Virus record (IMG/VR): IMGVR_UViG_3300036790_000261
Coordinates: 88,725 to 122,331 of that record
Direction: 5' to 3' (one strand)
Length of the DNA: 33,607 nucleotides
Origin: a virus
Lineage: Duplodnaviria; Heunggongvirae; Uroviricota; Caudoviricetes
The translations under genes and the position numbers were made by a program. Under the pieces are notes generated by a model, which was given only the letters and a program-made list of their open reading frames with translations, did no database searches and was not told the DNA's origin. Shown in pieces: positions 2,672-4,420 of this stretch. How positions within the stretch are numbered: the first letter of the stretch is position 1; the number at the start of each line of letters is the position of its first letter.

Positions 2672-2684
2672 GCTGCTAAATCCG

Positions 2685-3041
2685 AGCACAGCCAAGAAAA
2701 GCGAAGTTAAGTACAGCCTAGCCGTGCCTTGCGTAGCCAAGCCTAGCGGAGCAAAGGATCTGCCTTTCGCGGAGTCTGGCGTAGTTCAGCAAAACAAAGC
2801 ACAGCGTAGGATAACGCGTTTCCACAGCACAGCTGAGTTAAGAATAGCGTAGCTGAGCCCGGTTTAGCGGAGCTGAGCAAAGCCCAGGTTTTTCTTCCGA
2901 AGTCCAGCATTGCCCAGCAAAGTGCAGTTCAGTAGAGCACGCTCTAGCGGAGCTTAGTACAGCGTAGGGACCAAACTCGGAGCTTAGAAAAGCGATGCGC
3001 TAGCCAAGTGGAGCCCAGTTCAGTTTAGCCAAGCGTAGGGA
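2685..3041 (+). ncRNA. Array of five AGY-NN pentamer units (VIPR-like guide RNAs), each ending in AGG
   Basis: Strict 5-nt period, e.g. agcac agcca agaaa agcga agtta agtac agcct... Units are at 2685-2759, 2768-2812, 2826-2890, 2901-2970 and 2976-3041, with 8-14 pentamers each and short linkers. RNA status is inferred. Confidence 0.8.
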
Positions 3042-3045
3042 TTAC

Positions 3046-3543
3046 ATGACCGACGATGTGTACGTGTTTAAGTCTCCGAGTCGTCCCGGTGAGCTGAAGA
3101 TAGGTCACAGCGGTGACCGGGATCAACGGCTAGTAGCCGCTCGCACCTGGCTGGAGCAGGGCACGTTTATCGCGGAGTACCCCGGTGGCGGGTACGCGAT
3201 GGAGCAGTGGCTGCACCGGCAGCTAGAGGCAGCTGGTTATGAGCGCGACGGGCGGACGGAGTGGTTCCGGTGCGATCTGCGCGCGGTACAGCTAGCCGTC
3301 AACGTGGCGGAAGAAGCCGACGTGGAGTTCGTGGCACGGGCCGTTGCCGAGCAGCGTAAGCAGGAAGCGGCGCGGCAGCGGCTGACGGGGCAGCAGGTTC
3401 AGCGACAACTAGCTCTAGGCGTTCGCGACGCGGCGCTGCATGAAGCACAGGTCGCGCGGGAGAGCGCGCAGCAGGCGCAGAGGTCTTCTCAGCCTCGGTA
3501 CGAGCGCCCGCTGCCCCGGCTCCCGCGAGAAAGAGAGAAGTAG
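3046..3543 (+). CDS. T5orf172/MUG113-family (GIY-YIG superfamily) nuclease with a C-terminal helical tail
   Basis: Motif pattern VYVF...LKIGHS...RL...E..LH..L...EWF. An SD-like AGGG comes from the end of the last array unit. Confidence 0.8.
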   Translation: MTDDVYVFKSPSRPGELKIGHSGDRDQRLVAARTWLEQGTFIAEYPGGGYAMEQWLHRQLEAAGYERDGRTEWFRCDLRAVQLAVNVAEEADVEFVARAVAEQRKQEAARQRLTGQQVQRQLALGVRDAALHEAQVARESAQQAQRSSQPRYERPLPRLPREREK

Positions 3544-3548
3544 CAAAG

Positions 3549-4193
3549 ATGGAAAAGGTAGACAACCTCGTTACCGCTGAGATAACCGTGAGTGGCACGG
3601 GATACCTCACGCTGAACAATATCGACGCGGCTAACCCCGATCTCCCGCTGAACAAGGAGCACGCGGCGCTGGTTGACCGTGGCCGCGGAAAAAGCAACCG
3701 CACCGAGGTCGAGGAAGCGCGGATGCGCCGCATTCAATGGGAGCGCAGCCTCTACCTGAGTGCCGACCGGAAGCTCACGTTCCCGACGTACAACATCGCC
3801 TGCTGTTTCGTCGCCGGCGCGAAGAGCTACCGGCTAGGCAGCACCACCGAGCGCGCTCTGACCATGATGGAAATGGACGTTCCGCTGCGTTACGGCCAGG
3901 AGGAGGAGCGTCTCAACGAGATGAATCTCGACAAGCTGTGGGACTCCGGGGTCACGACGTGGAGCACGATTGTCAACGGGAATCCGTCCGCAGCTAAGGG
4001 TAGCTCCAAGGTCATGCTAACCCGGCCGCGCCTTCGCCCTTGGGCCCTTACCTGCACCGTCGAGGTAGACGTCCAGGTTCTCGACTGGGACGACTTTGAA
4101 AAGGTCGTGCACGCATCAGGTCGCGGAGTCGGTATCGGTAACGCGCGTAAGCTCGGACACGGACGGTTCACCGCGGAAATCAAGCAGCTTTAA
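3549..4193 (+). CDS. Phage Cas7/RAMP-like RNA-binding protein (Vipr-like)
   Basis: N-terminal ITVSGTGYLTLNN, central SLY...FPTYNI..CF..GAK, TRPRLRPWAL and a C-terminal glycine-rich loop GRGVGIGNARKLGHGRF typical of RAMPs. It is flanked by pentamer arrays. Confidence 0.78.
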   Translation: MEKVDNLVTAEITVSGTGYLTLNNIDAANPDLPLNKEHAALVDRGRGKSNRTEVEEARMRRIQWERSLYLSADRKLTFPTYNIACCFVAGAKSYRLGSTTERALTMMEMDVPLRYGQEEERLNEMNLDKLWDSGVTTWSTIVNGNPSAAKGSSKVMLTRPRLRPWALTCTVEVDVQVLDWDDFEKVVHASGRGVGIGNARKLGHGRFTAEIKQL

Positions 4194-4413
4194 AGCACGG
4201 AGCTTAGCGCAGTCGAGTACAGCTGAGTAGAGTGCAGCACAGTATAGCTTTAGCGCAGGATTTACCCGAAACCGTAGATAAGTGAAGCGAAGTGCAGTGC
4301 CGCCAAGCAAAGAGTAGAAAAGCATAGTAATTAATACGGAAGCCACACAGTTCAGCCCAGCGTAGTTAAGCGCGGATAAGCGGAGCTCAGTAGAGTACAG
4401 CCCAGCTTAGGAT
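4194..4413 (+). ncRNA. Second array of three AGY-NN pentamer units
   Basis: Units are at ~4196-4261, 4271-4330 and 4349-4413 (agctt agcgc agtcg agtac agctg...). Two of the three end in AGGAT. Confidence 0.8.
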
Positions 4414-4420
4414 CTACCCT

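Follow-up and report, generated by a model that had tools for sequence, protein, structure and literature searches.

Structure of the locus

This report deals with a VIPR locus in a stretch of DNA of 33,607 nucleotides (hereafter the window, whose coordinates are used unless another contig is named) from IMG/VR record IMGVR_UViG_3300036790_000261, a 122,331-bp phage contig of 66% GC from soil. VIPR is a CRISPR-related, RNA-guided DNA silencer described in preprints of 2026 (bioRxiv 10.64898/2026.04.26.720920, 10.64898/2026.04.26.720927). In the canonical systems, the RAMP-like protein Vipr polymerises along guide RNAs (vrRNAs) built of GGY-NN units, with 9–16 tandem units to a vrRNA gene, and the NN pairs read double-stranded DNA with one base skipped per unit, mostly the wobble base of a codon (10.64898/2026.04.26.720920, 10.64898/2026.04.26.720927). 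Phage VIPR systems act against satellites and rival phages, and self is spared in the published systems. The locus studied here, at 2672–4420 (1749 bases), extends exactly from the stop codon of an exonuclease gene to the start codon of a polymerase gene. It holds, in order, five array units (U1–U5, 2685–3041), a gene for a protein of 165 amino acids, the vipr gene for a protein of 214 amino acids, and three further array units (U6–U8, 4201–4413). It is a real VIPR system, built on a variant scaffold in which the triplet is AGY.

All eight array units lie on the plus strand, as read directly from the sequence and by an in-phase scan. They had been described in the original prediction as AGY-NN units of which seven close with AGG, and this description holds, the NN strings agreeing except at the edges of units. 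U1 (2685–2759) has 15 AGY-NN pentamers and ends with AGGAT, U2 (2773–2812) has 8 and the same end, U3 (2826–2890) has 13 and ends with AGGTT, and U4 (2901–2970) has 14 and ends with AGGGA. U5 (2981–3041) and U6 (4201–4261) both have 12 pentamers, with 1-nt insertions at 3001 and 4251, and end with AGGGA-TTAC and AGGAT-TTAC, respectively. U7 (4276–4330), of 11 pentamers, is the only unit that AGG-NN does not close; it ends with AGTAA. U8 (4349–4413) has 13 pentamers, and its end, AGGAT, stands 7 nt before the polymerase start. Of 98 pentamers in all, 89 (91%) have A at position 1 and 96 (98%) have G at position 2; at position 3, C occurs in 56 and T in 28 (Y, 86%), while positions 4 and 5 are near uniform in base use. 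The triplet differs from the canonical GGY. Eight in-phase runs of at least six AG pentamers were observed, against none in 50 shuffles of the window. No AGY arrays were found elsewhere on either strand of the 122,331-bp genome. A tandem-repeat scan found no CRISPR-like repeats, and the locus is a minimal one, with vipr and one accessory gene in a viral genome.

In the clade formed by this locus and its close relatives, the consensus of unit ends is AGC-RY AGG-NN TTAC. Canonical loci end with GGR-NN; in AGY and GGY loci alike, then, the closing unit is marked by its purine at position 3. No long structured 3′ tail was found after the units and no Rfam family was recognized, the single Rfam match being a sub-threshold chance match to Flavi_TBFV_SL6 (4603–4646); nor was a hammerhead or other ribozyme found between units. 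The terminal AGG-NN of U5 and U8 stand 4–7 nt before the start codons of the 165-amino-acid protein gene and the polymerase gene (3036–3048 and 4409–4423), that is, at the position of a ribosome-binding site, and the same is seen in siblings. Two other readings of the arrays were rejected. A coding function was dismissed since a period of five fits no reading frame and no plus-strand open reading frame spans the arrays, and DNA replication iterons were dismissed since the NN strings decode to genes, and under a skip of one base only.

The Vipr protein and its scaffold

The vipr gene (3549–4193, plus strand) had been singled out in the original prediction by a glycine-rich loop of the RAMP/Cas7 type. 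The loop is present (GRGVGIGNARKLGHGRF), and comparison with Cas7 and Vipr proteins by sequence and by structure prediction found the RAMP fold. In a phmmer search, residues 12–211 match PDB entry 36pp, "SUSP1 Vipr protein", with an E-value of 1.5e-6. The protein falls in PHROG 4652 (E 2e-23) and in no Pfam family, and an exhaustive profile-free search gave a family of 893 representatives. An AlphaFold2 model built on 106 family representatives has a pLDDT of 93.5. The top 50 Foldseek matches of this model are all Csm3/Cas7-type subunits, the best being Csm3 (E about 3e-6, probability 1.00, TM about 0.5). Sequence comparison and the model thus identify the 214-amino-acid protein as a true Vipr homologue with a predicted Cas7/Csm3 fold, and the VIPR-like, RAMP-related locus that had been proposed is supported at this level. 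With the Csm3/Cas7 backbone subunits of type III CRISPR-Cas, the model shares the RRM core, the loop rich in glycine, and the thumb. However, sequence identity to them is only about 10%, the locus has neither CRISPR repeats nor other cas genes, and its periodicity is five bases whereas that of type III effectors is six. Among cultured GenBank phages, no AGY-lineage Vipr closer than about 32% identity was found in the collection searched, and blastn of the locus against GenBank phages gave no match.

Recognition of the GGY triplet has been solved structurally for two GGY systems. In SUSP1 Vipr, G1 is contacted by His17 and Asp177, G2 by Arg138 and Trp178, and Y3 by Arg179 (10.64898/2026.04.26.720927). 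Five loci with verified GGY arrays were used for comparison, namely the SUSP1-type Felixounavirus, Gordonia phages Trine and MakoManhole, Mycobacterium phage LittleE, and Pseudomonas phage Medea1. In all five, the residue corresponding to SUSP1 His17 is His, and the glycine-rich loop reads G[D/E][W/Y]RPR. In all nine loci of the clade (the window and eight siblings), these are replaced by Asn23 and GIGN198-A199-R200-KLG, and the arginine contacts to G2 and Y3 persist as R159 and R200 (SUSP1 Arg138 and Arg179). Outside the clade, eight distinct loci of IMG/VR share the GNAR[K/R] loop, with either Asp or Asn at the first position; AGC/AGY arrays are present in all eight and a GGY array in none. 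Covariation between residues and scaffold type is therefore complete in the 22 loci examined (5 GGY, 9 clade, 8 IMG/VR). We infer that the Asn amide reads adenine where the Asp carboxylate read guanine. The two G1-pocket residues are changed, His to Asn (to Asp in some of the wider lineage) and Asp/Glu to Asn, which gives a directly testable rule of specificity.

Because the eight IMG/VR loci have AGY arrays as well, AGY marks a widespread VIPR lineage beyond the phage of the window. The locus had been proposed to be a distinct subtype with an AGY triplet; the AGY scaffold stands, but it is not peculiar to this phage. In the wider lineage (L022–L030), units end with AGCAC AGCAC AGR, and the accessory gene, downstream of vipr and between arrays, encodes a different protein of about 125–175 amino acids without a Pfam family. 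In one of these loci (L024 1014–2717, minus strand of an IMG/VR contig), the gene adjoining the AGY-type VIPR locus has weak matches to Hint and LAGLIDADG and may for this reason bear an intein.

In its available text, the discovery preprint divides VIPR into seven types with GGY "or a related consensus", and names NNNGG, YNNNG, and NNNNG as such repeats (10.64898/2026.04.26.720920). In view of this wording, an AGY triplet is compatible with membership in VIPR, and AGY may perhaps be included already in types I–VII. The available text of a language-model preprint reports non-canonical VIPR arrays with GAC, CAC, WGT, and TGH triplets (10.64898/2026.10.21.760802). These arrays and those of the discovery preprint share with the locus a Vipr-like protein adjoining five-base arrays with a non-GGY triplet, and WGT is the nearest pattern to AGY named in the two available texts. 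AGY or AGC as a natural scaffold is not named in the available text of either preprint, figures aside, nor is AGY named in the text of the structure preprint (10.64898/2026.04.26.720927). A change of triplet is not tied to residues of the G1 pocket in the available text of the discovery or language-model preprint.

Decoding of the guides

For decoding, each AGY triplet was replaced by one wildcard base and both strands were scanned. Thirty-seven guides of the clade were compared in this way with 190.5 kb of non-self DNA. At a match of at least 80, 85, and 90%, a skip of one base gave 10, 8, and 5 of the 37 guides, respectively. With no skip, no guide matched at 80%, and with a skip of two bases the counts were 1, 0, and 0 at the three thresholds. 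Shuffling the order of NN pairs (n = 60) gave means of 0.52, 0.07, and 0.02 guides. A few matches at a skip of three we read as sibling-array copies of the guides. Base-by-base alignment of targets placed the skipped base at codon position 3 each time, for targets on either strand. The gapped reading suggested by the original prediction is thus borne out in silico, the NN strings obeying a rule of a one-base, wobble-aligned skip against real genes. In all of these base-aligned targets, the NN of the terminal AGG-NN unit never pairs with the target, so this unit seems to act as a handle rather than as part of the guide.

Two guides of the window have targets in sibling phages, whose contigs are designated by L numbers. 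U1 reads an exonuclease motif (ending in LRLVQLGNE) with 25 of 28 matches in L009, 24 of 28 in L015, and 21 of 28 at its own site; over all 30 NN letters, the figures are 25/30, 24/30, and 21/30. U8 reads the polymerase gene, with 22 of 26 in L011 (22/24 without the end unit) against 17 of 26 at its own site, and matches 21–22 of 26 in L008, L010, L011, L012, and L014. The own sites lie at 2176–2220 on the plus strand for U1, where the skipped base is again codon position 3, and at 4694–4732 on the minus strand for U8. Together, U1 and U8 match these diverged sites at 65–70%, versus 80–85% for siblings. On non-self DNA, guides of relatives match at up to 93%. L021, a sibling without the cassette of arrays and genes, gives the best matches of all, which are made by guide 1 of L009 (26/28), guide 6 of L006 (23/24), and guide 1 of L011 (22/24). 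The last two also have sites in the window, both on the minus strand and in the wobble register. The site for guide 1 of L011 is in the exonuclease gene (2453–2488) and matches at 20/24, against 22/24 in L021. That for guide 6 of L006 is in the polymerase gene (4835–4873) and matches at 21/24 (21/26 untrimmed), against 23/26 in L021, or 23/24 without the end unit.

U2 is too short for a target call, and no target was found for U3 or U4. Scans of IMG/VR for exact patterns of U3, U4, and U6, built on the ten NN pairs at the 3′ end of each, gave no match. In their own genome, untrimmed window guides of at least 11 units match at 75% or less. The best own-genome match of U4 (19/26) is in the tape-measure gene (38276–39103 of the genome, outside the window; L031 2777–3604), where U6 (18/22) and guide 3 of L011 (16/20) match as well. 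All three are the best own-genome matches of these guides and lie within 830 bp, on one strand, and in the wobble register. They are compatible with chance, as the gene encodes a coiled coil rich in Ala, Leu, and Gln and about 0.2 matches of 18/22 are expected per guide, and they may also hint at the tape-measure genes of rivals as targets.

A sibling without vipr carries a solo AGY unit (L018 5791–5845) at its exonuclease–polymerase junction, with a GC-rich hairpin directly after it (5791–5880). Under a skip of one base, this solo guide matches vipr of the window at 18 of 20 in the wobble register (3957–3986, minus strand, residues 137–146, TWSTIVNGNP). In six further vipr genes of the clade, it matches at 16–18 of 20. 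Any other skip length, no skip included, gave no match at 90%. VIPR-null phages of the Felix O1 type carry solo vrRNAs against vipr (10.64898/2026.10.15.759431). L018 likewise lacks vipr (in a stretch of 11 kb) and has one AGY unit that decodes to vipr, but it belongs to another phage family, uses another scaffold, and is a single example at the level of sequence. It would thus appear to repeat the published finding in another family and on another scaffold.

Sibling loci and the insertion site

The search for relatives gave 11 close Vipr homologues with 53–94% identity, all from soil metagenomes. Nine sibling contigs were read and represent eight distinct siblings, since L007 nearly duplicates L006; a tenth contig, L010, is a near copy of L008. 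Gene order is common to all of them, namely exonuclease, AGY arrays, T5orf172 gene (the 165-amino-acid protein gene of the window), vipr, AGY arrays, and polymerase. Across 53–96% Vipr identity, the AGY scaffold is retained with strand and position fixed, and the NN strings are almost wholly different. Even L011, a relative with 94% identity, has only half of one guide in common with the window, the 3′ half of U5. Neutral drift of the NN positions, as in a minisatellite, was looked for in these relatives and is not what is seen, since NN strings are replaced wholesale and AGY is kept. The scaffold is thus under constraint while the NN strings turn over, which is the opposite of minisatellite drift. 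In a relative of about 94% identity from soil run X6, U6 is replaced (at window 4196–4252) by a different stretch of 70 nt, and the last guide before the T5orf172 gene differs too. As the genes of this relative stay conserved around the changed guides, single guides appear to be swapped as whole units. The branch of 55% identity has a polymerase of 744 amino acids (L008 4472–6706, L010 7321–9555) versus about 400 elsewhere, and in these two contigs an open reading frame of 48 amino acids lies between the last guide and the polymerase gene. A search of IMG/VR with the polymerase gene, and one of IMG/VR and GTDB genomes with the clade Vipr alignment, found no relatives; a scan of a single metagenome gave one locus, L010.

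Both flanks of the cassette are replication genes, and both are target genes in siblings. On the left is the 3′ part of a gene for a primase/helicase-3′-5′ exonuclease (164–2671, plus strand; Pfam D5_N, DUF5906, and DNA_pol_A_exo1; PHROG DNA primase), whose whole product has 1027 amino acids and whose start lies upstream of the window. On the right is a family A DNA polymerase with the polymerase domain only (4421–5629, plus strand; Pfam DNA_pol_A, E 1e-41). It has actinophage-like matches at about 30% identity, and from these, the high GC, and the soil source only a weak host assignment can be made.

Homologues of the exonuclease protein number 51, against 11 for Vipr. The cassette occupies the exonuclease–polymerase junction in eight siblings (nine contigs). 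The junction is empty, with the two genes abutting, in L015–L017 (L015 5040–5060). It holds an unrelated gene of 221 amino acids with a weak ProQ_C-like match in L018–L020 (L018 5120–5785), and a gene of 267 amino acids plus a DUF5131 gene in L021 (9870–12102). The junction is an insertion hot spot of this phage family. All confident targets of the clade's flank-reading guides lie 25 to about 500 bp from it, on both sides, and this holds in the complete 122-kb genome. Most of the sibling DNA is in short contigs centred on the cassette, which makes targets in the flanks easier to find.

The accessory gene

The gene upstream of vipr (3046–3543, plus strand) encodes 165 amino acids, with a T5orf172 domain (GIY-YIG superfamily) in residues 1 to about 90 and a long C-terminal helix. 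The domain scores 35.4 bits against PF10544 (cut-off 20; residues 5–86), and the orthologues in L008 and L009 pass the cut-off too. Six orthologues share Y6, K18-x-G20, R28, E53, and E72 without exception, and catalytic roles may be assigned to these residues by analogy only. The gene is retained in all six siblings whose contig spans its whole position. In the predicted structure of its product, a single long helix follows an alpha/beta domain. The best two VIA-align matches of the domain are the GIY-YIG nucleases Slx1 (Z 6.7, 93 residues aligned) and HIGLE (Z 6.4), both with Z below 8. Foldseek gave no match for the model at E ≤ 0.001, and a profile search of PDB sequences gave chance matches only. 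Prediction of a complex between Vipr and the T5orf172 protein scored 0.00, which is no verdict and counts as evidence neither way. From domain and model, the product is probably nuclease-like, of the T5orf172/GIY-YIG type, with its activity predicted.

Mode of action

In our view, the cassette is probably a functional VIPR system of the AGY lineage that attacks co-infecting siblings at their replication genes while the carrier's own alleles have diverged. The steps from transcription and processing to assembly of the ribonucleoprotein, and the outcome of silencing or cutting, we infer as follows. The arrays would be transcribed together with the flanking replication genes, and the transcript would be cut into vrRNAs of about 50–85 nt, each a run of AGY-NN closed by AGG-NN(-UUAC). 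By analogy with SUSP1, one Vipr protomer would cover each unit, hiding AGY and exposing NN, and the NN pairs would read double-stranded DNA with every third base skipped. N23 and N198 would accommodate A as the first base of the scaffold, with the contacts to G2 and Y3 kept. Guides with known targets would read codon positions 1 and 2 in conserved exonuclease, polymerase, and vipr motifs of siblings. As an outcome, the replication genes of a co-infecting rival would be silenced, or damaged by the nuclease.

Several points weigh against such a function. In SUSP1, the scaffold mutant GGY>AGY abolished silencing (legend of fig. S12), so the function of an AGY system hinges on the co-adaptation of Vipr suggested above. 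Targets were found for only two of the eight window guides in reachable DNA. None of them is a perfect match, the best for a window guide being 22/24. Trimmed U6 matches the carrier's own tape-measure gene at 18/22, above the 80% line of the preprint. The units of the window are somewhat worn, as the TTAC end is kept in two of eight, U7 has lost AGG at its end, and U5 and U6 have 1-nt indels. Promoter and terminator consensus scans of 2300–4800, which left some promoter types outside, found nothing useful, and no RNA run holding the locus was found.

A different outcome of the same anatomy, cleavage and spread in place of silencing, is RNA-guided homing or marker exclusion. Here Vipr with its vrRNAs would mark exonuclease and polymerase sites of a sibling near the junction, the T5orf172/GIY-YIG nuclease would cut, and repair would copy the cassette with its flanks; new guides would then track escaping alleles. 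We consider this possible, though improbable. It is nevertheless a concrete, testable hypothesis, because the cassette, which stands at a polymorphic site, includes a gene for a predicted nuclease and has guides that read the genes on either side. In T-even phages, the free-standing GIY-YIG homing endonucleases known as Seg proteins have genes that lie between conserved ones and are present or absent among sibling phages; their target sites are found in the flanking gene of the sibling, near the point of insertion, and the site of the carrier is diverged. The cassette resembles them in the place of its genes, its polymorphism, the nearby predicted sites, and its diverged own site, whereas here guide RNAs and a RAMP protein would choose the site, and cleavage is hypothetical. 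Further points in favour are that the nuclease-like gene is kept in 6/6 covering siblings with its Tyr, Lys-x-Gly, Arg, and Glu invariant, that the junction is empty in L015–L017 and filled by other inserts in L018–L020 and L021, that the confident flank targets all fall within about 500 bp on both sides, and that the best matches, from 22/24 to 26/28, are to cassette-less siblings. However, short cassette-centred contigs favour flank targets, guides match cassette-bearing siblings too (U8 against L011), and targets were found for a minority of guides, so that many may point elsewhere. Moreover, the nuclease role of T5orf172 is predicted only, its fold match is modest (Z 6.7), and published nuclease-bearing VIPR types lie mostly in host defence islands, as far as the available text of the discovery preprint goes.

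It is very unlikely that the guides instead serve self-regulation, tuning the phage's own exonuclease and polymerase genes by partial matches. U1 (21/30) and U8 (17/26) do have their best own-genome matches in these adjoining genes, but for every flank-reading guide compared, the own site matches worse than non-self DNA and below 80%, and the published systems spare self. Least likely of all is non-functional repeat DNA, either a minisatellite or a decayed VIPR array beside a RAMP-like gene: degenerate units (indels and lost end motifs) and the negative search for RNA runs would fit it, but AGY is kept across 53–96% protein identity while NN is replaced, the NN strings decode to real genes at a skip of one only, and strand and position do not vary in any relative.

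Relation to known systems

The closest known systems are those of type II VIPR (Escherichia phage SUSP1 and the P. fulva clade), with which the locus shares a homologous RAMP-fold Vipr with the glycine-rich loop. In common with SUSP1-type loci, it has arrays of 8–15 five-base units made of a fixed triplet and a variable pair, a purine at position 3 of the closing unit, a one-base-skip, wobble-aligned code that applies to either target strand, and a two-gene layout in a virus. Both also have targets in mobile elements that compete with the carrier, whose own copies are spared. The differences start with the scaffold, which is AGY here and GGY there, and with Vipr itself, in which His17 and Asp177 are changed to Asn and Trp178 to Ala. 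The tail is a short AGG-NN-TTAC with 10–18 nt between units, whereas SUSP1 has a pseudoknot tail of about 40 nt. The accessory gene encodes a putative nuclease of the T5orf172/GIY-YIG type upstream of vipr, where SUSP1 has vap1. Finally, arrays flank the genes on both sides here, and the carrier is a soil phage of 122 kb and 66% GC.

Implications

Three features stand out, namely a residue-level account of the change of scaffold, targets in the replication genes of siblings, and a cassette with a predicted nuclease at a polymorphic site. The AGY locus and its relatives represent a natural G-to-A switch of the first scaffold base, and pairs of scaffold and pocket could perhaps be used to build VIPR tools that are mutually orthogonal. 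If homing were true, the cassette would correspond to a free-standing homing endonuclease, but one guided by RNA. The locus extends VIPR biology to large GC-rich soil phages, whose guides appear to be aimed at the replication genes of siblings, and the counter-move by a solo guide is recovered, as judged from its decoding, in an unrelated phage family.

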